64,000 nucleotides of DNA from a phage, in sequence record PZ026127.1; one strand, 5' to 3'. How positions within the stretch are numbered: the stretch's first letter is position 1; each line of letters opens with the position of its first letter. Shown here in pieces: positions 1 to 54,433 of this stretch. The translations under genes were made by a program, and so were the position numbers. Below the pieces are notes generated by a model. That model saw nothing but the letters and a program-made list of their open reading frames with translations. It did no database searches and was not told where the DNA came from.

Positions 1-1463
1 CGAGTATCATTCGACAAGTGAATATAAGCCCAGAGACCATCGCAGGGACATTCGCTAACGCACCGATACATGAATATATTGCCGGAACAGCTCCGCGTCC
101 TAGCGACACCTACAGTTGCTCTCCTAACGGCATGATGTATTATAAAGACCGTGAAGGTGTGATTCCGACAGAAATCACAAAGGTATTCTTGCAGCGTAAA
201 GAACATAAAGGTTACATGCTTGCAGCTCAGCGTAATGGTGAGTTAATTAAAGAAGCATTGGAAAATCCTAATCTCTCGGTTGATAGTCCACTGGATATCG
301 ATTATCGTTTTGACTTCTCTGACGAAATCAAAGCCCAGATTAAAGCACTGTCAGCGCCTTCTTTAAGAGAAATGTTGAAGAAAGCCGAGCTCACTGAAGT
401 TGCAGGTAACACGGCTCAGATTAACCGTAAGTTGCTTATCAACTCCCTTTATGGTGCACTTGGTAACGTATGGTTCCGTTACTATGACCTCAGGAACGCA
501 ACTGCAATCACATTGTTTGGTCAAATGGCCCTCCAATGGATTGAACGTAAGGTTAACGAATATCTGAATAGCGTGTGTAAGACTGAAAATCAGAAGTTCG
601 TGCTCTATGGTGATACTGACTCCATTTATGTTAAGGCCGATGCAATCATCAATAAAGTAGGCGAAGATAAATTTCGTGACACTAACCACTGGGTCGACTT
701 CTTAGATAAATTTGCACGTGAACGTATGGAACCAGCTATTGATGCAGGCTTCCGTGAGATGTGCGAATACATGAACAACAAACAACACTTGATGTTCATG
801 GACCGAGAAGCTATCGCAGGTCCTCCACTTGGTTCTAAAGGTCTTGGTGGATTCTGGACAGGCAAGAAACGTTATGCACTGAACGTTTGGGACATGGAAG
901 GTACTCGTTATGCCGAACCGCACTTGAAAATCATGGGTCTCGAAACTCAGAAATCAAGTACACCTAAAGCAGTTCAGAAAGCTCTGAAGGAATGTATCCG
1001 TCGTATGCTTCAGGAAGGCGAGGCATCTTTGCAAGAATATTTCAAACAGTTTAATAAGGAATTTAACGAACTCGATTATGTAAGCATTGCAGCAGTATCC
1101 AGTGCTAACAACATCGAGAAATATAATGAAGGTGGATTCCCGGGTTCTAAATGTCCATACCACATCAAAGGTTGCTTAGCTTACATGCGTGCTTCTGCAG
1201 GTGATTTGACTATGCCTCGTATCGTTGATGGTGAAAAGGTATATGTACTGCCACTTAAAGAAGGCAACCCGTTTGGTGAAGCTTGTATGGCATGGCCGTC
1301 AGGTATTGAACTTCCGGTTCAGATTCGTGACCAAGTCCTCCGTTGGATGGACTACAACGTACTGTTCCAAAAGACCTTTATCAAACCTCTGACCGGTTTT
1401 ACTGAGTCTGCTAAAATCGACTACGAGAAAAAAGCAACATTATTTGATATGTTCGACTTTTAA
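1..1463 (+). CDS. 43: DNA polymerase gp43, C-terminal part (5' end lies outside window)
   Basis: ORF runs in frame from window edge; family-B polymerase motif YGDTDS and C-terminal LFDMFDF tail as in T4 gp43. Confidence 0.95.
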   Translation, partial: SIIRQVNISPETIAGTFANAPIHEYIAGTAPRPSDTYSCSPNGMMYYKDREGVIPTEITKVFLQRKEHKGYMLAAQRNGELIKEALENPNLSVDSPLDIDYRFDFSDEIKAQIKALSAPSLREMLKKAELTEVAGNTAQINRKLLINSLYGALGNVWFRYYDLRNATAITLFGQMALQWIERKVNEYLNSVCKTENQKFVLYGDTDSIYVKADAIINKVGEDKFRDTNHWVDFLDKFARERMEPAIDAGFREMCEYMNNKQHLMFMDREAIAGPPLGSKGLGGFWTGKKRYALNVWDMEGTRYAEPHLKIMGLETQKSSTPKAVQKALKECIRRMLQEGEASLQEYFKQFNKEFNELDYVSIAAVSSANNIEKYNEGGFPGSKCPYHIKGCLAYMRASAGDLTMPRIVDGEKVYVLPLKEGNPFGEACMAWPSGIELPVQIRDQVLRWMDYNVLFQKTFIKPLTGFTESAKIDYEKKATLFDMFDF

Positions 1464-1465
1464 GT

Positions 1466-1495
1466 GTTTACATACCACAAGGAACGTGGTAGTAT
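1466..1495 (+). promoter_or_regulatory. early sigma70-type promoter (GTTTAC -35, TAGTAT -10) upstream of imm
   Basis: GTTTAC at 1466-1471, 18 nt spacer, -10-like hexamer, then CCTATCAAC box and GAGGAA RBS. Confidence 0.5.
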
Positions 1496-1525
1496 CCTTC
1501 CTATCAACTACATGAGGAAATTACA

Positions 1526-1762
1526 ATGGAAGCTTTAATCGTTAGTGCTGGTGTTTTAGGATTCGGTTCTCTGGTTATTATGTTCATCGGTTACTTTTTA
1601 CCATGGATTCTGGCTCTTCTGCGAGGCACTCGTAGTAATGTCGGAATTTTCTTCCTTAATCTCCTGTTAGGCTGGACGATGATTGGTTGGGTAGTGGCTT
1701 TAATCTGGGCTATCGTCGCTGAACGTAAATCAAACGCACAAATCATTATTGTTAAGCAATGA
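1526..1762 (+). CDS. imm: Imm superinfection-immunity membrane protein
   Basis: 78 aa, two hydrophobic helices, position directly after gene 43 as in T4; RBS GAGGAA. Confidence 0.85.
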   Translation: MEALIVSAGVLGFGSLVIMFIGYFLPWILALLRGTRSNVGIFFLNLLLGWTMIGWVVALIWAIVAERKSNAQIIIVKQ

Positions 1763-1903
1763 AAATAATTATTTTATTTCTTATAATGACTGCCTTTACC
1801 ATTTATTGGGCAGTGGCAATTCCGCCAATGATTCCGACACTCATCATTGGATGGATTATTCTTATAGCACAAATTAAGTATAACTGTTTTAATTGAGGAT
1901 ATT

Positions 1904-2404
1904 ATGAAAAAGTTAATTATCGCAATGAGTATGCTCCTATCAGGTTGCGCGGTCCAATATGGTGATACAGTTTCGGCCGATGAAGTTGGTAAAGCTCGTA
2001 TCGCAGCTGAACAGAAACAATTCGATGGCGAAATGAAATTCCGTGCAGGTTCTGGACTTGTGTACACCCGAGCTAATAATCAATGCGGTAATAACTGTGC
2101 AAAATATGCTCAACAAGAAATCGAATTCCAACGTGAACAAGAGTCCAAGCGTGAAGCGGTACTAGCCAAACACCAGGCAGAAATGAAGCGTCAAGATGAT
2201 TTGTACAAAAAGCAGAAACTGTATGCGATGTGCGTAAACCATATCAATCTACAGATTTCCATCCACGAGGCTCGTTATTACGAAATGCTCGAAACCGAGA
2301 GCTTCGGTAAAGCTCGTGATTATAAGAAACAAATCGATAAGCTCAAGACCAAAGCACCGGCGGCAATAGAACAGTGTATTGAAATCGGTAAAGATAAGAT
2401 TTAA
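1904..2404 (+). CDS. predicted lipoprotein, function unknown
   Basis: N-terminal MKKLIIAMSMLLSGC lipobox followed by charged coiled-coil-like region; RBS GAGGA. Confidence 0.6.
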   Translation: MKKLIIAMSMLLSGCAVQYGDTVSADEVGKARIAAEQKQFDGEMKFRAGSGLVYTRANNQCGNNCAKYAQQEIEFQREQESKREAVLAKHQAEMKRQDDLYKKQKLYAMCVNHINLQISIHEARYYEMLETESFGKARDYKKQIDKLKTKAPAAIEQCIEIGKDKI

Positions 2405-2464
2405 GCAATACCAATTTATTAAAAATAGTGTATAATGTACCTACATTCACTTGAGGAACAGATA

Positions 2465-4138
2465 ATGAAAAAGGTTGTTATTTTAGGCGCGGGTCTTGGC
2501 TCACGGTTGTATCCAATTACCAACGAAATCCCGAAGGTACTGGTTAACTACAAACAACATACTGTATTAAAACATTTGTATGATTTGTATAGTAATCAAT
2601 CAGATGAAATTATTCTGGTTATTCACAGCAAATTTAACGACCTCGTTAAAGGCTATATTAAATCCATTAACATGATTAATAGTGATAAGCCTAAATTCAC
2701 TATTCGTAACGTTGATGTTGCCAATGGTTCGGCTCATGCTATCGATTGCATTGCCGAAGATATCATTGGGCACAATGTCTTGTTTAACTGGTGTGATATT
2801 ATTCCTGAAGGTCATAAAGTTGAGTGGGATAACGACTACTGTTATACCTATGGGACTGACTGTCGTTTTACATTTGAAGAACCGTACTTGCGTGAAATTG
2901 GTACCGGTGGTGGCGTAGTTGGCTTGTATCAGGTGGCTAATTGGACAGGTTTCGACCGTTCTAATTATGGTGAAGACCTTGCTGACAACCTGGATTCAAT
3001 GGTCCATTTGACTGAACGTAAGTTAGACTTTGTAGTTGATGTTGGTGACAAACTGAAACTGGCTAAGGCCCATGAAGATTCTGAAATTAACCGTGAATTT
3101 AATAAATTAGAGTTCACTGAGAATCTAGCTATTAAAGTACCTACAAACGAATTAGGTAAAGAAATCCAATCTAAAGAAATCAATTGGTACAATTCTATTG
3201 ATTCTGAATTCGTTCCTAGCATTGTAGACTTTGCTCCAGGTGAATTCATTAAAATGGAACGTATCTTTGGTCGAACCATGGCAGATGCCTACCGGTTTAT
3301 GTCTAAAGAAACTAAAGTCCTAATGGTTTATAAGGTTATTAGTGCATTACGTTCGTTCGGTGGAACTATCGATAATCCATCTGATGAGCAATGGTATTCT
3401 GATGTTAAGAAAGAAGTATTGGACAAGGTCCTTATTCGTAATGCTTCTATCGCCGGATTGATTGAAGGCTTTGCTCCACAGGGCATTACCCATGTTAACG
3501 ACTTTAAGGTAGGCGACCCTGAAAAACTTCTTCGCCATGCACTAGAAATTCTGTCTGAACATAAAGAACCGTACCAACTTATTCATGGCGACCCGCACTA
3601 CAGTAATATTATGTTGTCGGACGAAGGTGATATTAAAATCATCGACCCACGTGGTTATTTTGGTAATAGTTCTAAAGGCCCTGCGATTTATGATGAAGCT
3701 AAGGTGCTTTATTCTATCGATGGTTATGACAAATTTAACTCTGACCCTCTATGGGGTGGCTTAACTCGTAACGGAACTCGTGTATTCGTTGATATTGAAA
3801 AGGTTATGCCTTTAGATGATATTCCAATGTGTACATTTAAGCACAAGCTCTGGATTGCTGTTATCTGGATGGCATTGGCAGGTTACTTTAAAAATAACCC
3901 TCTGAAAGCTCTGGGTGCTTATTACAACGGTTTGTACCAACTGAGTGTGCTGCTGAAGCGACATCCTCGTAAGCGTAAGCTTATCACAGGTGAATTCGTT
4001 GATGAAGTTCGCGACCCTATCACGGCTCAAATTATCACTCGTTGTCCTGATAAGTGGGTTTTGCTTGACCAAGAAACTGGTGTAAAATATAAACCTACAG
4101 GTTCTACTGAACTCCACAAACAATGGAAGAAAATTTAA
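2465..4138 (+). CDS. bifunctional nucleotidyltransferase / kinase-like phosphotransferase (N-terminal sugar-1-P or phospho-alcohol nucleotidyltransferase domain, C-terminal APH/choline-kinase-like domain)
   Basis: N-terminus ILGAGLGSRLYPIT...PKVLV matches the G-x-G-[ST]-R-x-x-P-x-T nucleotidyltransferase signature; C-terminal HGDPHYSNIM...IKIIDPRG matches the catalytic loop of aminoglycoside/choline/anomeric-sugar kinases. Start set at ATG 2465 after GAGGAA; the track ATG at 2435 lies inside a TGTATAAT -10 box. Confidence 0.7.
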   Translation: MKKVVILGAGLGSRLYPITNEIPKVLVNYKQHTVLKHLYDLYSNQSDEIILVIHSKFNDLVKGYIKSINMINSDKPKFTIRNVDVANGSAHAIDCIAEDIIGHNVLFNWCDIIPEGHKVEWDNDYCYTYGTDCRFTFEEPYLREIGTGGGVVGLYQVANWTGFDRSNYGEDLADNLDSMVHLTERKLDFVVDVGDKLKLAKAHEDSEINREFNKLEFTENLAIKVPTNELGKEIQSKEINWYNSIDSEFVPSIVDFAPGEFIKMERIFGRTMADAYRFMSKETKVLMVYKVISALRSFGGTIDNPSDEQWYSDVKKEVLDKVLIRNASIAGLIEGFAPQGITHVNDFKVGDPEKLLRHALEILSEHKEPYQLIHGDPHYSNIMLSDEGDIKIIDPRGYFGNSSKGPAIYDEAKVLYSIDGYDKFNSDPLWGGLTRNGTRVFVDIEKVMPLDDIPMCTFKHKLWIAVIWMALAGYFKNNPLKALGAYYNGLYQLSVLLKRHPRKRKLITGEFVDEVRDPITAQIITRCPDKWVLLDQETGVKYKPTGSTELHKQWKKI

Positions 4139-4521
4139 TGTCACATCGAGTAGAAAATAAGCCTCATTTATGTTTTGACATCGATAACACAATCACGATT
4201 TGGAACCATGACCGTGATTATGAAAACTTTAAACCGGACACCGAAATGGTGTCCATGATTAATAAGCTTTATGATGAAGGATGCGAGATTACCTTGTTCA
4301 CTGCCCGTGGTATGACTTCATGCGGTCCAGGTCGAATCTTGGTTGAAGTAGTTCCTGCATTGGTTAAGAATCTTGAAAAGATTGGATTGAAATATCATAA
4401 TCTGCTTACACATAAGCCGAGTTATACTTTTATCATCGATGACCGAGCAATCCGTCCTGACCACTTTAAAGAAATGGTTCGTGAAGGAACTCTTGAAACC
4501 TATAAGGCATATCATCCGTGA
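4138..4521 (+). CDS. HAD-superfamily phosphatase-like protein
   Basis: Motif I FDIDNTIT (DxDxT), motif II TLFTAR, motif IV IIDDR; start ATG overlaps upstream stop (TAATG). Confidence 0.6.
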   Translation: MSHRVENKPHLCFDIDNTITIWNHDRDYENFKPDTEMVSMINKLYDEGCEITLFTARGMTSCGPGRILVEVVPALVKNLEKIGLKYHNLLTHKPSYTFIIDDRAIRPDHFKEMVREGTLETYKAYHP

Positions 4522-5054
4522 AACCAAAAATCATTGTTATCGACGGCCCGGATAATTCCGGGAAGTCTACTTTAATTGAATCGCTTTTATCTGATAAGAA
4601 ATATCGTCTTATCGATTTCCCTAAAAAGATTAATGGTAAGTGCATTTCGATAGGGACTGATAATGACAAGGCTTTAGTCGAGACGTTGTATAAGTTTTTA
4701 GACCCTAATTTTGTCTACATCTTAGACCGTGGATATCCTAGTAATATTGTTTACTCAGGATTCCTTCGTGGTGAAATGGACCCCTATGTAGAACTGGAAG
4801 ATTGGAAAGGGTTTAAATCTGAATTCAATATTATTGAGGTTATTTTAACCCGTAATCCACTGGATAAAGACTTTGAAGATGACCTTATTAAATTAACCAA
4901 AGATGAGTTCAACCTAACTATCCGGCAATATGAAACATGTTTTGAAAACGTGTTTAAAATCTTAAATCACGACGGCCATAATAACTTGCTTAACGTCGAT
5001 ATGGTAGAATTAAAACGTCTGAATGAATATATTGAAAATAAGGTGAATAAATGA
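4518..5054 (+). CDS. P-loop nucleotide kinase, thymidylate-kinase-like
   Basis: Walker A IVIDGPDNSGKST and TMK-like DRGYPSNIVYS motif; GTG start overlapping upstream stop. Confidence 0.6.
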   Translation: MKPKIIVIDGPDNSGKSTLIESLLSDKKYRLIDFPKKINGKCISIGTDNDKALVETLYKFLDPNFVYILDRGYPSNIVYSGFLRGEMDPYVELEDWKGFKSEFNIIEVILTRNPLDKDFEDDLIKLTKDEFNLTIRQYETCFENVFKILNHDGHNNLLNVDMVELKRLNEYIENKVNK

Positions 5055-5749
5055 AACACATTACCGCTGTTAGTTTTGAAAACGCGTTTAAGCAAATGAA
5101 CGAAGAAATCCTGGAAGCTCCACAGTTTGCAGTTGATTCTCGTATCGGCCGTTGTTATGAAATTGGTTCTGCTTCGGTAGAAGTACTGGATGCAAGCACC
5201 TATAAATTCACCGACCCTCGTATTAATCGTATCAACTATGATTATGCCGAATCTTTCTGGAAGTTTATGATTTCTGGTGGTACTGACGCCGCCGAAGCAT
5301 TTAAGGAATACCCTAATGTTGCTAAGTTCATTGATAAGCCGAAAAGTGACGTATTGCCTGCAAACTTCAACACTTTCTATGGACCTAGAATTGTGGCCCA
5401 ACTCCCAGCCTTACTTAAAGAGCTTAAAGAGAAGCCTAACTCAAGACGAGTTGTGTTCCAAATTCTCCAAGAACAAGACCAAGCCCTCCTTGATTCTGAC
5501 GAATCCTTAGAATATCCATGTACCGATTCGGTGACATATTATATTCGTGATGGACGTCTGTATGCACACACTCATATGCGTTCACAGAACTGTGCTATTG
5601 TTATGCAGCTGGATTTCTATCTGCAGGGTAAACTGATGGCCTTTATTGCTGAACAGTGTGGTGTTGGTCTGGGTACGTATTCCCATACTATGGTTAGTGC
5701 ACACGTATTTGAACGTGATTTTGACTACGTTCGAGGATTCCTGAAATGA
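5051..5749 (+). CDS. 42: dCMP hydroxymethylase (thymidylate-synthase fold)
   Basis: 232 aa; motif CTDSVTYYIRDGRLYAHTHMRSQN resembles T4 gp42; position between imm region and uvsX. Confidence 0.85.
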   Translation: MKHITAVSFENAFKQMNEEILEAPQFAVDSRIGRCYEIGSASVEVLDASTYKFTDPRINRINYDYAESFWKFMISGGTDAAEAFKEYPNVAKFIDKPKSDVLPANFNTFYGPRIVAQLPALLKELKEKPNSRRVVFQILQEQDQALLDSDESLEYPCTDSVTYYIRDGRLYAHTHMRSQNCAIVMQLDFYLQGKLMAFIAEQCGVGLGTYSHTMVSAHVFERDFDYVRGFLK

Positions 5750-6639
5750 GTTTGTTTATCGTTCCTATTTTCAGTATGCGTAGTTACGAAACAGGTGAAT
5801 ATGCCGTCCTTAAGGACGGCAATTTTCAACTCCATTTAAACCGTGCTTGCCCAGGTGATTATCTGGCTTATCCTAGAAATTCGAGCGATATCAAAGAATG
5901 CATTGAATTATTTCCTGAACTGAATTTTGTACCTCTTTGGTATAAAGAAAATGCTTATGAAACTCGTAAACATTTTTGGTCTGAAAATGAGTTCGTTGTT
6001 GATTCGTTAATCGAATACTATGACTGCTCAGGATTGGTAACCGATATCACAGGTTATGATGGTGCTCATACCGTACAATTCAACTTTAACATTACAATGG
6101 ACCCTGAAGTTCCTCGTTATTACATCGATGAGTTTATTGATACCGACGTGGGTTCAGTTGAACGTTCGATTTATACTACAGTCTTGAATCAATGTCAGAA
6201 AGACGTCCTGGTGTCACGAGGTGCGTCCTCTGATAAGATTTTTGTAGACCAAAAGGTAATTAATCCTGCAGTAATTGAGCGTTACTCTGAAGGTCTAGCG
6301 CCTATTAAAATTGATGGTATTTTCCATCCATTCCGTATTTCAGATAAATGCTACCAATTCGAAAGAGTTGTAGACCAGGCTGCGGCTGAGGGTTCTCGTC
6401 TTTACATCACCGACCCGAATGATTCATTTAAGCGTGAAGACTATCGTCCTGATGTAGAGATTATTAAATTCAAACCGAGTAAGGTTGAATATTATCAGAT
6501 TCTGAAATCAAGACCTCATATCATTTATCATGAGAATCCCGGTTTAGTATTCCATCCTGGTCTGGCTGAATTCATTTATTTCGGTGCCCACATCCATTCT
6601 GAGCACGAAATGCCAAGTTATGAGGACGTGGTCCTTTAA
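5746..6639 (+). CDS. unknown protein occupying the beta-glucosyltransferase position; candidate hmC-DNA transferase
   Basis: 297-aa ORF translationally coupled to gene 42 (ATGA overlap); no recognisable motif; assignment by synteny only. Confidence 0.4.
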   Translation: MSLFIVPIFSMRSYETGEYAVLKDGNFQLHLNRACPGDYLAYPRNSSDIKECIELFPELNFVPLWYKENAYETRKHFWSENEFVVDSLIEYYDCSGLVTDITGYDGAHTVQFNFNITMDPEVPRYYIDEFIDTDVGSVERSIYTTVLNQCQKDVLVSRGASSDKIFVDQKVINPAVIERYSEGLAPIKIDGIFHPFRISDKCYQFERVVDQAAAEGSRLYITDPNDSFKREDYRPDVEIIKFKPSKVEYYQILKSRPHIIYHENPGLVFHPGLAEFIYFGAHIHSEHEMPSYEDVVL

Positions 6640-6716
6640 CGCTGTAAATGTGAAGTGATATAATTACCCTATCTTAAAACGTGAGTAAAATATAATGATG
6701 CCTATGGAAAAATATA

Positions 6717-7889
6717 ATGTCTGATTTAAAATCCCGTTTGATTAAAGCTTCTACTTCTAAAATGACCGCCGACCTGACCAAATCTAAATTGTTTAATGGT
6801 CGTGACGAAGTTCCTACTCGTATCCCTATGCTGAATATTGCATTGGGCGGTGCGTTGAATGCAGGCTTACAATCAGGTTTGACAATCTTTGCTGCTCCAT
6901 CTAAACACTTTAAAACGTTGTTTGGACTTACCATGGTTGCGGCATATATGAAGAAATATCCAGACGCAATTTGTTTGTTCTATGACTCTGAGTTTGGTGC
7001 TTCAGAATCTTATTTCCGTTCGATGGGTGTTGATTTGGAACGTGTGGTTCATACACCAATCCAGTCAGTCGAACAGCTTAAAGTTGATATGACCAACCAG
7101 TTAGAAGAAATTACTCGTGGCGAAAAGGTTATTATCTTTATCGACTCCATTGGTAACACTGCTTCTAAGAAAGAAACCGAAGATGCTTTGAACGAGAAAG
7201 TTGTAGGTGATATGACTCGTGCTAAATCACTGAAATCTCTGTTCCGTATCGTAACACCTTATCTGACTATCAAAGATATCCCTTGTGTAGCAATCAACCA
7301 CACGGCTATGGAAATTGGTGGAATGTATCCTAAAGAGATTATGGGTGGTGGTACTGGTATTCTGTACTCTGCTTCTACCGTGTTCTTTATCTCTAAACGT
7401 CAGGTTAAAGATGGTACCGAGCTCACTGGTTATGACTTCACACTGAAGGCTGAGAAATCTCGTACGGTTAAAGAGAAATCAACGTTCCCTATCACCGTTA
7501 ACTTCGAAGGTGGTATCGACCCATTCAGTGGATTGCTTGAAATGGCTACTGATATTGGCTTTGTCGTGAAACCTAAAGCTGGCTGGTATAATCGTGCATT
7601 CCTTGACGAAACCACAGGCGAAATGGTTCAAGAAGAAAAAGCATGGCGTGCTAAAGCTACCGATTGTGTCGAGTTCTGGGGACCGCTGTTTAAACATGCC
7701 CCGTTCCGTGAAGCAATCGAGAATAAGTATAAGCTCGGTGCAATTAATTCTATTAAAGAAGTTGACGATGCAGTGAACGACCTTATTAACTCTCGTGTCT
7801 CTAAGAACGTTGCTGTTAAATTAGGTGGTAATGCCCAAAGCGCCGCTGATATCGAAAACGATTTGGAAGAGATGGATTTAGATGACTGA
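6717..7889 (+). CDS. uvsX: UvsX recombinase (RecA-like)
   Basis: 390 aa, N-terminus MSDLKSRLIKASTSK and overall strong match to T4 UvsX. Confidence 0.95.
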   Translation: MSDLKSRLIKASTSKMTADLTKSKLFNGRDEVPTRIPMLNIALGGALNAGLQSGLTIFAAPSKHFKTLFGLTMVAAYMKKYPDAICLFYDSEFGASESYFRSMGVDLERVVHTPIQSVEQLKVDMTNQLEEITRGEKVIIFIDSIGNTASKKETEDALNEKVVGDMTRAKSLKSLFRIVTPYLTIKDIPCVAINHTAMEIGGMYPKEIMGGGTGILYSASTVFFISKRQVKDGTELTGYDFTLKAEKSRTVKEKSTFPITVNFEGGIDPFSGLLEMATDIGFVVKPKAGWYNRAFLDETTGEMVQEEKAWRAKATDCVEFWGPLFKHAPFREAIENKYKLGAINSIKEVDDAVNDLINSRVSKNVAVKLGGNAQSAADIENDLEEMDLDD

Positions 7890-8211
7890 TTTATCTGATT
7901 TAGATAATTTCGTTAAAGATACCGAAGAGGGTCCTAGTGACCCTCGTTATTATGAGAAATCATTAGATATAATCCGTAAGTCAATGGGATCGGTTAAGCA
8001 GGAAATTATGCTTACTTTACCCGATGGCACTGCTCACATCGTTTATGTGATGAATATTGTTATTGAGAAAGATGGAAAAGTGTCGGTTGATTTCGGAACA
8101 CCTTCCGAAGACCGAAAAGAAGAGCTGGCGCTTCATGTAGAAAAATGTGTTACAATGCAAATACAAGAAGAACTGGATAAAATTAAATCTAAGAGGTGGT
8201 GGAAGTGGTAG
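7882..8211 (+). CDS. 40: gp40-like protein (head vertex assembly helper)
   Basis: 109 aa ORF between uvsX and 41, as T4 gene 40. Confidence 0.6.
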   Translation: MTDLSDLDNFVKDTEEGPSDPRYYEKSLDIIRKSMGSVKQEIMLTLPDGTAHIVYVMNIVIEKDGKVSVDFGTPSEDRKEELALHVEKCVTMQIQEELDKIKSKRWWKW

Positions 8212-9635
8212 AAACTATTTTGGCTCAACTGCTAGGCAATAGTGATTATTTCACTAAGGTCTGGCCTTATATGAATGATTCTTATTTTGACCAGGGTCCT
8301 GCAAAGACCCTTTTCAAAGAAATTAAAAAACATGTCAATGAATATAATGCAGTGCCTTCTAAGAACGCATTGAGCATTGCATTAGATAACAGTACGCTTT
8401 CAGAAGTTGAACACCAAGGCGCTAAAGAGCTTTTAAGTTCGCTGAATGCCGGACCTGAAGACCAAGAATGGTTGGTTAAAGAGACGGAGAAATACGTTCA
8501 GAAAGCAGCGATGTATAATGCAACTTCAAAAATCATTGAAATCCAAACTAATGCCGACCTTCCGGTTGAGCAACAAAATAGAAAACTTCCAGGTATTGGT
8601 GCTATTCCGGATATCATGCGTGATGCATTATCGATTTGTTTCGATTCTGAATTAGGTCATGACTGGATGGATGACTATGAAGAACGATTCAAAAGTTATT
8701 CCGATAAAGCACGTAAGGTTCCATTCCGTCTTAATATTCTGAATAAGATTACCAAGGGTGGTGCTGAGTTTGGTACTGAAAACGTATTGTTGGCAGGAAC
8801 AAACGTAGGTAAGTCTCTTGGTCTTTGTTCATTGGCTGCTGATTACCTTCAATCCGGTTACGATGTTCTTTATATCTCCATGGAGATGGCAGAGGAAGTA
8901 TGTGCTAAGCGTATCGATGCCAACCTTCTGGACGTGTCGCTGGATGATATCGATGATGGTCACGTCTCGTGGCCTGAATATAAAGCTAAGATGGATAAAT
9001 GGCGTTCAACTGCTACCTTGGGTCGTTTAAAGATTAAACAGTACCCTACCGGTGGCGCTAATGCCGATACATTCCGTGCATTATTAAACGAATACAAGCT
9101 CAAACAAAACTTTGTCCCACAGGTCGTTATCGTTGACTACTTGGCTATCTGTGCATCGTCTCGTACGAAAGTTTTCTCTGAAAACAGTTACGGATTGATT
9201 AAGATGGTTGCTGAAGAACTACGTGGACTTGCAGTAGAGAAGAAATTACTGTTGTGGACTGCAGCCCAGACTACTCGTGGTGCGAACGTTGCAGCCGAAA
9301 TCGATATGGCCGATATTGCTGAATCCTTTGGTATTGCACATACTGCAGACTTCATGTTGGGTGTGGTCGAGACAGAAGAGTTCGCTCAGATGGGTATGCA
9401 GATGGTTAAGCAGCTTAAATCTCGTTATGGCGATAAGAGCTACTACAACAAATTTAAGATTGGCGTTAAGAAAGGAAATCAACGTTGGTACGAAGTTGAA
9501 GATGATTCCAACCCAGGCCCAGTGAACACTGTTCGTGAGGCTACAGGTGAGATGAATCGCCAGGCCGAGGTCAATCGACAGACGCGTGTTAATAGAAGTG
9601 ATTTGGACGATTTAGCAGCATCTATCAAATTTTAA
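8205..9635 (+). CDS. 41: gp41 replicative DNA helicase (DnaB-like)
   Basis: Matches T4 gp41 from the MVE(T/I)IL N-terminus onwards; Walker A GTNVGKS; GTG start. Confidence 0.95.
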   Translation: MVETILAQLLGNSDYFTKVWPYMNDSYFDQGPAKTLFKEIKKHVNEYNAVPSKNALSIALDNSTLSEVEHQGAKELLSSLNAGPEDQEWLVKETEKYVQKAAMYNATSKIIEIQTNADLPVEQQNRKLPGIGAIPDIMRDALSICFDSELGHDWMDDYEERFKSYSDKARKVPFRLNILNKITKGGAEFGTENVLLAGTNVGKSLGLCSLAADYLQSGYDVLYISMEMAEEVCAKRIDANLLDVSLDDIDDGHVSWPEYKAKMDKWRSTATLGRLKIKQYPTGGANADTFRALLNEYKLKQNFVPQVVIVDYLAICASSRTKVFSENSYGLIKMVAEELRGLAVEKKLLLWTAAQTTRGANVAAEIDMADIAESFGIAHTADFMLGVVETEEFAQMGMQMVKQLKSRYGDKSYYNKFKIGVKKGNQRWYEVEDDSNPGPVNTVREATGEMNRQAEVNRQTRVNRSDLDDLAASIKF

Positions 9636-9656
9636 GGAGCTTCGGCTCCTTTTTTG
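9636..9656 (+). terminator. intrinsic terminator (GGAGC-UUCG-GCUCC hairpin plus U tract)
   Basis: ggagcttcggctcc followed by ttttttgtttt directly after gene 41 stop. Confidence 0.7.
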
Positions 9657-9665
9657 TTTTTAAGG

Positions 9666-24117: not shown

Positions 24118-25935
24118 ATGATTAAGAATGAAATTAAAGTACTGTCCGACATTGAACATATCAAAAAACGTAGTGGGATGTATATTGGCTCAAGTGCTAA
24201 TGAAGCTCACAGTCGATTCCTGTTTGGTAATTTTACACAGGTAAACTATGTTCCTGGACTGGTTAAATTAATTGATGAAATCATTGATAACTCTGTCGAT
24301 GAAGCTATTCGTACCAATTTTAAATTCGCAAATAAAATTGATGTTCAAATTAAGAATAACCAGGTTTCAGTTTCTGATAATGGTCGTGGTATTCCACAAG
24401 CAATGGTCACCGACCAAAATGGTGAACAGATTCCAGGTCCTGTAGCTGCATGGACTATTCCAAAGGCAGGTGGTAACTTTGGAGATGACGCTGAGCGTAA
24501 GACAGGCGGCATGAATGGTGTCGGTAGTAGTTTAACTAATATCTTCTCTGTTTTGTTCACAGGCATCACCTCTGATGGTGAGAATGAGATTACTGTTAAC
24601 TGTTCAAACGGAATGGAAAACAAAGGTTGGTCTACTAAGAAATCTAAAGGTAAGGGTACTTCGGTTATATTCACCCCAGACTTTAATCATTTCGAAGAAA
24701 ATAGCCTGTCACAAATTTATCTGGATATTACATTAGACCGATTGCAAACTCTGGCCGTAGTTTATCCTGATATTCAATTTACTTTTAATGGTAAAAAAGT
24801 AGATGGCAACTTTAAAAAGTATGCTAAGCAATTTGGTGAAGACTTTGTAATCCAAGAAACCGATAATGTTTCGATGGCATTTACTCCTTCTCCGGATGGA
24901 TTCCGTCAACTGACTTATGTAAACAATATCCACACCAAGAATGGTGGCCACCACGTTGAATGCGTATTCGATGATATTTGTGAACACCTTCTGCCAGGCA
25001 TTAAAAAGAAATACCGTGGAATTGAAGTAACTAAAGCTCGTGTTAAAGAATGCCTTACGATGGTGATGTTCATTCGTGATATGAGCAACATGCGTTTTGA
25101 TTCACAGACTAAAGAACGTTTGACCTCTCCTTTTGGTGAGATTCGCAATCATATCCAAATTGATGCTAAGAAAATTGCTCAAGCCATTCTTAAAGTTGAT
25201 GGGTTGATTATGCCTATCGTTGAAGCTGCTTTAGCACGTAAATTAGCAGCTGAAAAGGCTGCCGAAACTAAAGCCGCTAAGAAAGCTTCTAAAGCCAAGG
25301 TCCATAAGCATATTAAAGCTAACCTATACGGCAAAGATGCTGATACAACCCTGTTCCTAACCGAAGGTGATTCCGCTATGGGTCCTTTCATTGAAGTTCG
25401 TAATAAAGACCTTCAAGGTGGTTACCCATTGCGTGGTAAGGTTATGAATACCTGGGGAATGACAGCAACAGATATCATGAAGAACAAGGAACTATTTGAT
25501 ATCTGTGCAATCACTGGACTTGTTATTGGCGAACCTGCAGAGAAAACTAACTATCGTAATATCGCTATTATGACTGATGCTGATGTGGATGGTACTGGTT
25601 CGATTTATCCATCATTGCTAGCCTTCTTTAGTCAATGGCCCGAATTGTTCGAACAAGGCCGAGTACGGTTCTGTAAAACTCCGGTGATTATTGCCCAGGT
25701 TGGTAAAGAACAGGAATGGTTCTATGACGTTCCTAGTTATACCAAAGCTAAGGACTCTCTACCAAAACATTCTATTCGGTACATCAAAGGACTAGGTTCT
25801 CTTGAGAAAGCTGAATATCGTCGAATGATTCAAGACCCTAAATTTGATGTGGTTCAATTACCTGAAGATTGGAAAGAACAGTTCGAAATGCTCCTTGGTA
25901 ATGACCCACAACTCCGTAAGGCCTGGATGTCGTAA
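24118..25935 (+). CDS. 39: DNA topoisomerase II large subunit (GyrB-like ATPase), uninterrupted 39/60-equivalent
   Basis: 605 aa single ORF with GHKL ATPase N-terminus and Toprim-like C-terminal half. Confidence 0.9.
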   Translation: MIKNEIKVLSDIEHIKKRSGMYIGSSANEAHSRFLFGNFTQVNYVPGLVKLIDEIIDNSVDEAIRTNFKFANKIDVQIKNNQVSVSDNGRGIPQAMVTDQNGEQIPGPVAAWTIPKAGGNFGDDAERKTGGMNGVGSSLTNIFSVLFTGITSDGENEITVNCSNGMENKGWSTKKSKGKGTSVIFTPDFNHFEENSLSQIYLDITLDRLQTLAVVYPDIQFTFNGKKVDGNFKKYAKQFGEDFVIQETDNVSMAFTPSPDGFRQLTYVNNIHTKNGGHHVECVFDDICEHLLPGIKKKYRGIEVTKARVKECLTMVMFIRDMSNMRFDSQTKERLTSPFGEIRNHIQIDAKKIAQAILKVDGLIMPIVEAALARKLAAEKAAETKAAKKASKAKVHKHIKANLYGKDADTTLFLTEGDSAMGPFIEVRNKDLQGGYPLRGKVMNTWGMTATDIMKNKELFDICAITGLVIGEPAEKTNYRNIAIMTDADVDGTGSIYPSLLAFFSQWPELFEQGRVRFCKTPVIIAQVGKEQEWFYDVPSYTKAKDSLPKHSIRYIKGLGSLEKAEYRRMIQDPKFDVVQLPEDWKEQFEMLLGNDPQLRKAWMS

Positions 25936-26734: not shown

Positions 26735-28945
26735 ATGATTATTGAAACCGAAAAAGAACAAATCATTGGTAATGGTGCTAAGTCCACAGGCTTTACTATT
26801 CAGGCATCGCCTAAGGTCTTTAAAATTTTGTCATCAGACCTTTATAGTAATAAAGTACGTGCCGTAGTTCGTGAACTAATTACCAACATGATTGATGCCC
26901 ATATTCTAAATGGTAATAAAGAACGTTGGAAAGTACAGGTTCCTGGTAAACTAGACCCTCGCTTTGTATGTCGTGATTTCGGTCCGGGTATGAGTGATTT
27001 CCAAATTCGTGGTGATGAAAACGAAACAGGTTTGTACAACTCTTATTTCGCATCATCCAAAACGGCTTCTAACGATTTCATCGGTGGCTTTGGCCTTGGT
27101 TCAAAATCTCCGTTCAGTTATACCGAAACGTTTAATATCACCTCATGGCACAATGGCGAAGTTCGCGGTTATGTAGCATATATGGATGGTGATGGCCCGC
27201 AGATTAAACCTACTTTCGTAGAACCTATGCAGCCAGGTGATAAAACAGGTATCGAAATCACGGTTCCTGTTGATGAAGAAGATTTCCGTAAGTTTGAAAC
27301 TGAAGTTCGTTATATCATGCGGCCTTTCATTGGTCTTGGTGATGTAGACGGTGTTGAAGTTGATTATTTCCCTGAATTTGACGATTACCATCCTGTAACC
27401 ACTACAAATTATGGCAGCTTCGAACGTTCAGGACTTTATGCAGTTTATGGTGGTATTGTTTATCCATTGGATTCTGCCTATAATAAAGGCACATGGATGC
27501 GTACTCGCCATGATGTAGTTTATATTAAGTTCCCTATGGGTTCACTGGATATTGCTCCGTCTCGTGAAGTGTTGTCTCTTGATAAACGTACGATGGAAAA
27601 TATTGCAACCCGTATCGAAGCACTGGATGCAGTGGTCTTTAAAAACGATACACAGGAATGGGTTGAATCTGATAATCCACGCCATGTTTATCGTGACCTT
27701 TCTAACCTTGGTTACAGTGCTCGTGACTATCTTACCAAAAAAGGTGGAACTAGCCTGTTTACTACAGAAAAATTGACATATGAGAAATTATACCAGCGTT
27801 ATACCCTTCAAAACGACCTTATTAATTTAGGTGTGGTTTACGAAGTCGTTTCAGACCCACGTTTGAAACGAATTAAGTCAAGTGGTAATACTTCTTCGGT
27901 AGCAGGACTTAGTAATTTATTAGGCATTAATAAGAAAGAAATCCATGTTGTTTATGATGATGAAAAAGGTCGTGTGCCATTAGTTCGAGGTCTTTGGGCT
28001 CTGGCAATGGACAACAGTGCTTCGGCTAAGAAAATTGTTAAAGAGAACAATATTCCTAAATACGGAACTGACCTTATTTTTGTCGACCCAAATTCAATGT
28101 TGCAAATGCAACAACTTGAAAAGGTTAAAGAACTTTTTAAAGGTGACACAATTCATTTTTATAAAGTCTCTGAACTGAATAAAATTGTTAAGCCATGGAT
28201 TCCGGTTACTGTCCGTTCATCAGAACCGCGTCCTAAAACACCGAGTGCTTATCGTTGGTTCATTAAAGACGGGCGCTGGCAACAAGAGACCATGTATTTG
28301 ACTGCTGCCGAAGCAGAAGAAATTACAGGTTATGTTCTGTTTGGCAGTCGTTCTGATATTATGGGAATGGATGAAGCTTATGGTATCTTTGACATCAATA
28401 CCACTACCATGTGTCGTATGGCTAATTTGATTGGTGCTACCGAATTCCATATCATTCGCCCTCAGATTGCCAAAAAGATTAAAAAGTTAGGCCAATGCGA
28501 ATGCTTGATGGAAGCTACATTAGAAGCTTATGCTGAAGCCTTAGACGCGGTAGATGTTGATGACTACCTTGGTAGCAATACTCGAGCTCGGTATTACCTT
28601 GAAATCATTGCTAAGTTCCCTCAGCTTAATTTCATGACCAAGTATTTCAGTGATAAGCCGGTAACTGAAGCATATACTCGTCTGAGTAATTTCTATGATA
28701 TATTCCGTTATATGAATTTCCATGGTTATATCACTGATGATAAGCTTTCCGTTATCAAGAAAATTTGTAACAATACTTTTTTTAAGTTGACTGATAATGC
28801 TTCAAGCAACAATGATAAAATGACTGTACAGTTTGAATCTGATTACCATTTAGTTTCGGACTACATGTATCGTCGTGGAACATCCATTACCGAGGCTTCT
28901 GTAGCTCAAATTGTTAAATTCATGAAAGCCGTGGAAGCGGCTTAA
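26735..28945 (+). CDS. rIIA: RIIA lysis-inhibition/membrane integrity protein
   Basis: 736 aa; N-terminal GHKL-like segment; size and order as T4 rIIA. Confidence 0.9.
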   Translation: MIIETEKEQIIGNGAKSTGFTIQASPKVFKILSSDLYSNKVRAVVRELITNMIDAHILNGNKERWKVQVPGKLDPRFVCRDFGPGMSDFQIRGDENETGLYNSYFASSKTASNDFIGGFGLGSKSPFSYTETFNITSWHNGEVRGYVAYMDGDGPQIKPTFVEPMQPGDKTGIEITVPVDEEDFRKFETEVRYIMRPFIGLGDVDGVEVDYFPEFDDYHPVTTTNYGSFERSGLYAVYGGIVYPLDSAYNKGTWMRTRHDVVYIKFPMGSLDIAPSREVLSLDKRTMENIATRIEALDAVVFKNDTQEWVESDNPRHVYRDLSNLGYSARDYLTKKGGTSLFTTEKLTYEKLYQRYTLQNDLINLGVVYEVVSDPRLKRIKSSGNTSSVAGLSNLLGINKKEIHVVYDDEKGRVPLVRGLWALAMDNSASAKKIVKENNIPKYGTDLIFVDPNSMLQMQQLEKVKELFKGDTIHFYKVSELNKIVKPWIPVTVRSSEPRPKTPSAYRWFIKDGRWQQETMYLTAAEAEEITGYVLFGSRSDIMGMDEAYGIFDINTTTMCRMANLIGATEFHIIRPQIAKKIKKLGQCECLMEATLEAYAEALDAVDVDDYLGSNTRARYYLEIIAKFPQLNFMTKYFSDKPVTEAYTRLSNFYDIFRYMNFHGYITDDKLSVIKKICNNTFFKLTDNASSNNDKMTVQFESDYHLVSDYMYRRGTSITEASVAQIVKFMKAVEAA

Positions 28946-52744: not shown

Positions 52745-54433
<1,689 letters not shown>

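Follow-up and report, generated by a model that had tools for sequence, protein, structure and literature searches.

The gene at positions 2465-4138 (+) of phage sequence record PZ026127.1 is very probably the Dhakavirus ortholog of AfhE, a bifunctional enzyme of phage HY126, and as such would supply the activated sugar for the arabinosylation of 5-hydroxycytosine in phage DNA. The whole stretch of the record that was analyzed, 64,000 nucleotides in length, is called the window here. This assignment is carried by the folds of the two domains of the protein, its conserved catalytic residues, its full-length orthology to known members of the family, and the conserved block of overlapping genes that it opens. 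On nucleotide identity, the window is a Dhakavirus, a T4-like coliphage of the JS98/QL01 type: the stretch from 1400 to 6800 is 96-98% identical to QL01, WG01, MX01, Bp7, and relatives, and QL01 is classified as a Dhakavirus. The coordinates of the features are collected in Table 1.

An earlier, model-made reading of this DNA, drawn from the letters alone (hereafter the sequence-only reading), had proposed that a sugar-1-phosphate or phosphocholine nucleotidyltransferase is fused here to a kinase of the APH/choline-kinase type. The strings to which it pointed, ILGAGLGSRLYPIT (residues 6-19) and PKVLV (residues 23-27) in the N-terminal part and HGDPHYSNIM (residues 374-383) and IKIIDPRG (residues 390-397) in the C-terminal part, are found in the translation, and a Pfam search of both halves matched both families above their gathering cutoffs: NTP_transferase (PF00483) at residues 13-110 (E 2.5e-8, 34.3 bits vs a cutoff of 21.2) and APH (PF01636) at residues 356-427 (E 1.3e-5, 25.6 bits vs a cutoff of 23.2). 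The 557-amino-acid protein joins a nucleotidyltransferase domain and an APH-fold kinase domain in one chain. With NCBIfam, the N-terminal part gave sub-threshold matches to many sugar-1-phosphate nucleotidyltransferases, and the C-terminal part a weak match to methylthioribose kinase. An alignment of 41 homologs, 30-81% identical, was inspected for loss of catalytic residues, and none was lost; the motifs to which the sequence-only reading pointed are likewise invariant in it. Invariant are G8-A-G10-L-G-S-R14, P23-K24, D111, and D192-x-G194 of the transferase and K224, E238, H374-G375-D376, N381, and D394 of the kinase. The family features of PF00483 (the G-x-G-x-R phosphate loop, a downstream Lys, and metal-binding Asp residues) and of PF01636 (the Brenner motif HxDxxxxN, a downstream metal-binding Asp, and an ATP-binding Lys-Glu pair) are all present. 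A PDB sequence search for a structure of AfhE returned none, only distant nucleotidyltransferases.

Beyond the kinase domain lies a tail of about 55 residues (500-557) that, judged by occupancy in the alignment, is missing from the more distant homologs. It carries the conserved pattern KWVL.D.ETGV.Y.P...QW, is confined within the family to the T4-like phage clade, and has a structure model of lower confidence. The tail could be an interaction module.

Table 1. Features of the AfhE-type gene and the genes that follow it (positions in the window).
Feature	Position	Strand	Evidence
Shine-Dalgarno-like GAGGA	2453-2457	+	7 nucleotides upstream of ATG 2465; read from the sequence
AfhE-type bifunctional enzyme	2465-4138	+	Full-length ortholog of HY126 AfhE, RB69 ORF53_52c, Bas46_0146
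N-terminal sugar-1-phosphate nucleotidyltransferase domain, residues 1 to ~200	2465-3064	+	GxGxR loop (G10, R14), K24, metal-binding D111, D192
N-terminal domain matches: RmlA, GalU, LicC, MurU, HddC			15-16
C-terminal APH/choline-kinase-fold kinase domain, residues ~205-498	3077-3958	+	K224, E238, catalytic loop H374-G375-D376...N381, metal-binding D394
C-terminal domain matches: choline kinases, LicA, APH enzymes, glucosamine kinase, maltokinase, methylthioribose kinase			14-16
C-terminal extension of ~55 residues (500-557)	3962-4135	+	Alignment occupancy per sequence; predicted local distance difference test score (pLDDT) 72-86
HAD-family phosphatase, AfhF homolog	4138-4521	+	64% to the HY126 protein just downstream of AfhE; TIGR01689 E 4e-14; HAD-IIIA
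P-loop thymidylate-kinase-like protein	4518-5054	+	36% to HY126 homolog; phrog_761 'thymidylate kinase' E 3e-39; weak Pfam/NCBIfam kinase P-loop matches
ThyA-fold enzyme with D169N, predicted 5-hydroxy-deoxycytidine monophosphate (5-hydroxy-dCMP) synthase	5051-5749	+	PDB 9IQU, 9IQC, 9IR2, E 1.5e-125
Homolog of the first DNA arabinosyltransferase (RB69 gp46:47 and HY126 counterpart)	5746-6639	+	67%, E 3e-149, full length; phrog_3891 E 8e-159

In a translated search, 368 of 50,697 phage records contained a full-length match to the AfhE-type protein. The 52 records that match at 95% identity or more are Dhakaviruses, a further 21 match at 80-90% and include Klebsiella Marfaviruses, and about 287 match at less than 60%, among them RB69-type Mosigviruses (42-43%), Serratia phage 92A1 (47%), Acinetobacter phage Maestro (43%), and Shewanella phage Thanatos (44%). 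Counterparts of the protein are HY126 AfhE (XAN60479.1), RB69 ORF53_52c (gp52:53), Bas46_0146, and DLP3 gp82. It aligns with residues 1-562 of the HY126 enzyme at 42.7% identity by tblastn (E 1e-131) and end to end at 45% by MAFFT, is 43% identical to the Bas46 protein by BLASTP, and matches phrog_4098 over its full length (1-557 vs 1-559, E 3e-269). The Bas46 homolog is already annotated as a 'putative enzyme involved in UDP-arabinose biosynthesis'. Compared with QL01, the gene differs by 20 synonymous codons and 1 nonsynonymous codon, a pattern indicating that it is under purifying selection.

The novelty implied by the sequence-only reading did not hold. Enzymes of this kind are already known, and we do not count this one as a discovery because a description of the RB69 fusion appeared in 2018 (PMC6024577) and an enzymatic characterization of the family is reported to have followed in 2026; Dhakaviruses also figure in the published comparisons. 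Thomas et al. (2018, PMC6024577) recognized RB69 ORF053c and ORF052c as one gene of 561 amino acids with a complex NTP-transferase/phosphotransferase architecture, listed homologs that include IME08 gp43 of a JS98-like phage, and proposed a role in the synthesis of uridine diphosphate (UDP)-arabinose. Lee et al. (2026, PMC13326640) reported that the DNA of RB69 and DLP3 contains arabinofuranosylated 5-hydroxycytosine, not hydroxymethylcytosine, that the ThyA homolog of such clusters is a flavin-associated 5-hydroxy-dCMP synthase, told by its D169N substitution, and that Dhakaviruses are among the lineages with syntenic clusters. Arabinosyl-5-hydroxycytosine chemistry has been published for RB69, DLP3, HY126, Bas46/47, 92A1, and Maestro (PMC13326640, PMC13390438). 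In Thanatos, knockout of TH1_060 abolishes propagation, making it an essential gene (PMC12838424); TH1_060 is the Thanatos ortholog, 44% identical, of the AfhE-type protein.

According to He et al. (2026), as summarized in PMC13326640, HY126 AfhE works both as a kinase of D-arabinose-5-phosphate and as a pyrophosphorylase that makes UDP-D-arabinose, and its kinase acts on arabinofuranose-5-phosphate, not on the free sugar. Arabinose had stood first among the candidate substrates named by the sequence-only reading. Its suggestion that a single polypeptide could phosphorylate a small molecule and convert it to a nucleoside diphosphate (NDP) derivative agrees with these reported roles, with two corrections: what the kinase receives is already a sugar phosphate, and its step is separated from that of the transferase by the action of a distinct phosphatase.

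The AfhE-type gene is the first of five genes, from 2465 to 6639, that adjoin with overlaps of 1 to 4 nucleotides at the ends of their open reading frames (ORFs), and the partners that accompany AfhE-type genes in known clusters, an AfhF-like phosphatase, a D169N ThyA homolog, and a glycosyltransferase homolog, are found alongside it. The start codon of the phosphatase gene overlaps the AfhE-type stop codon (TAATG at 4136-4140). The phosphatase has FDIDNT as HAD motif I, and TIGR01689, the NCBIfam model that it matches, is one for capsule-biosynthesis phosphatases. In RefSeq records and in phrog_1238 this gene is called 'phosphoheptose isomerase'. The label looks like a propagated misannotation because the protein has no isomerase domain and matches the HAD-IIIA and capsule-biosynthesis phosphatase models. 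The product is 127 amino acids long in the window and 119 in QL01, a length difference of 24 nucleotides near the 5' end.

The ThyA homolog matched PDB entries 9IQU, 9IQC, and 9IR2, whose chain has the sequence encoded by phage HY126 (PP658200.1; 100% identity), and through this match we reached the HY126 cluster for comparison. It is 79% identical to the crystallized HY126 enzyme vs 26% to T4 gp42, and it reads MRSQN where T4 reads MRSND; D169 is kept in T4 and in E. coli. Using the D169N criterion for 5-hydroxy-dCMP synthase from PMC13326640, we predict that the enzyme is a 5-hydroxy-dCMP synthase rather than a dCMP hydroxymethylase. Because of the substitution and these two identities, the DNA of the window phage probably contains 5-hydroxycytosine, not hydroxymethylcytosine. 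Relatives carry the annotation 'thymidylate synthase' or 'dCMP hydroxymethylase' for this gene. A second, weak ThyA-like match (23% over 104 amino acids to the HY126 enzyme) lies at ~53930-54226 (+) and is probably the genuine thymidylate synthase (td) of the phage.

The last gene of the block has no Pfam match, and its function as an arabinosyltransferase was assigned from PMC13326640. The thymidylate-kinase-like gene is conserved in all arabinosylation clusters examined, but here it occupies a different position in the gene order; the gp1-type deoxynucleoside monophosphate kinase of the window phage is encoded elsewhere. Upstream of the block, a hydrophobic ORF of 45 amino acids at 1759-1896 (+) is 60% identical to a 47-amino-acid ORF between the isomerase and AfhE genes of HY126, and this small membrane-like protein seems, by that resemblance, to travel with the cluster. 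An ORF of 166 amino acids at 1904-2404 (+), between imm and the cluster, has a lipoprotein-like N-terminus, MKKLIIAMSMLLSGC, and matches phrog_1754; T4 imm.1 is comparably placed.

Taken together, the evidence points to a cluster for UDP-arabinose synthesis and arabinosylation of 5-hydroxycytosine. The substrates, the UDP carrier, and the order of steps are taken, by analogy, from the literature on orthologs. In such a pathway, the C-terminal APH-fold kinase would transfer a phosphate from ATP to the anomeric O1 of D-arabinofuranose-5-phosphate and so form arabinofuranose (Araf)-1,5-bisphosphate; the HAD phosphatase encoded just downstream would remove the 5-phosphate, leaving Araf-1-phosphate; and the N-terminal nucleotidyltransferase would join this to UTP to form UDP-Araf and pyrophosphate. 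The glycosyltransferase would then move the arabinose onto 5-hydroxycytosine in replicated DNA, the base having been supplied as 5-hydroxy-dCMP by the ThyA-fold enzyme. Since the bisphosphate must lose its 5-phosphate before the transferase step, the AfhE-type polypeptide would not be sufficient alone.

Independent support for a link among these activities comes from metagenomic proteins of 922-946 amino acids (P0068, P0077, and P0092), in which HAD, SIS isomerase, nucleotidyltransferase, and kinase domains are fused in one chain; by 'Rosetta stone' reasoning, all four activities are therefore linked. A single chain thus carries the entire pathway of sugar activation; one of the four-domain fusion genes (L012, 14-2854) adjoins a sulfotransferase gene. 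With some uncertainty, these fusions, alone among the distant homologs, look cellular. A different distant homolog, 31% identical, lies at 8001-9659 of a 310-kb contig (L011) with NinX, Fpg, and gyrase/topoisomerase genes; many ORFs of this contig are without Pfam matches, and no obvious HAD, SIS, or ThyA neighbor was seen. We dropped the idea that the distant homologs are bacterial, as this one long contig, the one examined, looks like a very large phage.

Several genes of the known clusters were sought and not found. The window and QL01 28000-137000, jointly equivalent to a whole Dhakavirus genome, were searched by tblastn with the HY126 isomerase, the HY126 U32-like protein, and RB69p003, and none of the three had a match at E<=1. 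RB69p003 is the second arabinosyltransferase, and its syntenic slot, between gene 39 (24118-25932) and rIIA (26735-28942), is too small to hold it. In a Marfavirus (L010) with an 80% identical enzyme, the cluster keeps this gene order and adds a U32-like gene, and no isomerase was found within that cluster; Serratia phage 92A1 has both an isomerase and a U32-like gene. E. coli makes D-arabinose-5-phosphate (Ara5P) for the synthesis of 3-deoxy-D-manno-octulosonic acid (Kdo) through KdsD and GutQ. Because neither the window nor the remainder of a near-identical Dhakavirus genome encodes the isomerase, and there is only one glycosyltransferase, we infer that Dhakaviruses would depend on Ara5P made by KdsD and GutQ of the host and would form the mono-arabinosyl base only.

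Some observations weigh against assigning the gene to UDP-arabinose synthesis. Its product is only 43-45% identical to the characterized enzyme, which does not fix the specificity for sugar or nucleotide. The phage has no arabinose-5-phosphate isomerase, unlike the characterized clusters of HY126, RB69, DLP3, and 92A1, although a phage-encoded isomerase is a feature of those clusters and not necessarily one that defines the AfhE type; moreover, for the 106 kb outside the window the absence was read from QL01, which is 96-98% identical. The Thanatos ortholog, when assayed in vitro with xylose-1-phosphate, gave no assignable activity (PMC12838424), and our literature search did not find enzymology or DNA chemistry for any Dhakavirus.

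A rival explanation is that the Dhakavirus enzyme activates another pentose phosphate or uses another nucleotide, for instance converting ribose-5-phosphate to NDP-ribofuranose. The argument for it is that the phage lacks the isomerase that commits the RB69-type pathway to arabinose: no SIS isomerase is found in the window or the rest of QL01, the Marfavirus relative also has none in its cluster, and the AfhE identity is modest. We nevertheless think such a change of substrate quite improbable, since Ara5P is available from E. coli itself, the transferase that must recognize the donor is 67% and the phosphatase 64% identical to those of HY126, and Lee et al. grouped the Dhakaviruses with arabinosylating clusters (PMC13326640). 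The most far-reaching reading has, in our estimate, a low probability. In it, Dhakaviruses run a stripped-down pathway and either must draw on a host pool of Ara5P that is small and serves the synthesis of Kdo and lipopolysaccharide, or have a divergent AfhE that has shifted to another host pentose phosphate. Such a shift, which would place a sugar other than arabinose on 5-hydroxycytosine, is disfavored by the same 64-67% identity of phosphatase and transferase.

The order of the steps could also differ, with the HAD phosphatase first freeing D-arabinose from Ara5P, the kinase then acting at C1, and the transferase making UDP-arabinose. This scheme is written in Table 1 of Lee et al. (PMC13326640), but their text adopts the bisphosphate route shown experimentally for HY126 AfhE and AfhF. 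AfhF homologs also resemble GmhB, the heptose-1,7-bisphosphate 7-phosphatase (PMC13326640), which agrees with an intermediate that is a bisphosphate, like the one of the GmhA-HldE-GmhB pathway, and a phosphatase-first order has, in our estimate, only a slim chance of being right. As for database labels, some GenBank records call the protein 'bifunctional protein GlmU' or 'capsular polysaccharide', there are weak NCBIfam GlmU matches confined to the N-terminal nucleotidyltransferase part, and an early CDD assignment to the GT-A superfamily is mentioned in PMC6024577. The C-terminal half, however, is folded as a kinase, where GlmU has a left-handed beta-helix acetyltransferase, the NCBIfam scores all fall far short of the curated cutoffs (GlmU, 21.8 vs 366.85), and Thomas et al. 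obtained poor scores against glycosyltransferase models (PMC6024577). On this fold evidence we rejected both labels; that the protein is a GlmU-type enzyme or a glycosyltransferase is close to inconceivable. An AfhE ortholog serving UDP-arabinose synthesis is the reading that we prefer.

The start of the AfhE-type gene at 2465 is well placed. The ORF list contains a single plus-strand ORF, 2435 to 4138, that covers the gene, which as we delimit it comprises 557 codons and a stop codon. ATG 2465 is the start annotated in relatives (the QL01 coding sequence) and gives the N-terminus MKK... common to all homologs, and GAGGA stands 7 nucleotides upstream, whereas the other candidate, ATG 2435, shares letters with a TATAAT hexamer (2431-2436). 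We therefore take 2465, as the sequence-only reading had done, to be the real start. No recognizable -35 element or MotA box accompanies the TATAAT hexamer, and we claim no promoter there. A promoter and terminator scan of 1400-7000 gave matches at the level of shuffled controls. The description of the block as an early operon is plausible from position and strand, but with the promoter scan at chance it comes down to gene order, strand, and overlapping ORFs. Minus-strand ORFs within the gene (e.g., 2965-3279 and 3812-4192) were set aside as mechanical ORFs without support.

An enzyme of this type provides the sugar donor for a hypermodification of DNA by which phage genomes are protected against restriction enzymes and CRISPR nucleases, which makes it relevant to phage therapy, to host range, and to the sequencing or engineering of such phages. 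For the window itself, the practical value lies in annotation, as the names given to these genes in public Dhakavirus records are 'hypothetical protein', 'phosphoheptose isomerase', 'thymidylate synthase', and 'GlmU'. Petrov et al. (2010) are said to have left open the fate of the modified cytosine in JS98-type phages, which lack glucosyltransferases. By analogy with the characterized clusters, arabinosylation would answer that question.

Compared with HY126 AfhE and its equivalents, the window enzyme has nearly the same length (557 vs 561-562 amino acids), the same layout of nucleotidyltransferase, kinase, and C-terminal tail, an end-to-end alignment, and invariant catalytic residues, and here too the HAD phosphatase gene follows with overlapping stop and start codons. 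As in HY126 and RB69, a D169N ThyA homolog, a glycosyltransferase, and a thymidylate-kinase-like gene are nearby, between DNA polymerase and uvsX. The clusters differ in that AfhE has diverged from its HY126 counterpart (43-45% identity) while the neighboring ThyA homolog, glycosyltransferase, and phosphatase are 64-79% identical, in that the thymidylate-kinase-like gene precedes the ThyA homolog in the Dhakavirus cluster, and in that the latter is without the arabinose-5-phosphate isomerase, the U32 peptidase-like gene, and the second glycosyltransferase (RB69p003) of HY126/RB69.

Gram-negative bacteria make ADP-heptose with GmhA (an SIS isomerase), HldE (a kinase and adenylyltransferase), and GmhB (a HAD phosphatase). 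The logic is shared: phosphorylation at C1 to a bisphosphate, removal of the distal phosphate by a HAD enzyme, and formation of the NDP-sugar by a kinase-fused nucleotidyltransferase. However, HldE combines a ribokinase-fold kinase with a cytidylyltransferase-fold transferase, the sugar is a heptose, and the carrier is ADP; thus, the two systems are analogous, not homologous. The same two folds as in AfhE carry out consecutive kinase and nucleotidyl-transfer steps in AmgK (an anomeric kinase for N-acetylmuramic acid (MurNAc) and N-acetylglucosamine) with MurU (the MurNAc-1-phosphate uridylyltransferase), and in LicA (choline kinase) with LicC (CTP:phosphocholine cytidylyltransferase). Structural comparison places MurU, LicC, and LicA with the best matches of the AfhE-type domains, but AmgK/MurU and LicA/LicC are separate polypeptides that act on other substrates and need no intervening phosphatase. 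5-Methylthioribose kinase (MtnK), which serves methionine salvage, stands alone and lacks a transferase domain, and its sequence similarity to AfhE is marginal. In T4, finally, the same slot between gene 43 and uvsX serves the same strategy, in which a ThyA-fold enzyme is paired with a DNA glycosyltransferase (gp42, alpha-gt, as well as beta-gt). The interval holds only imm.1, imm, 42, beta-gt, and segA, with no nucleotidyltransferase-kinase gene, in agreement with the statement of the sequence-only reading that it knew of no such enzyme in T4. Unlike the window phage, T4 takes its UDP-glucose from the host and does not require enzymes for sugar activation, and its gp42, unlike the ThyA homolog described here, keeps D169 and makes 5-hydroxymethyl-dCMP.

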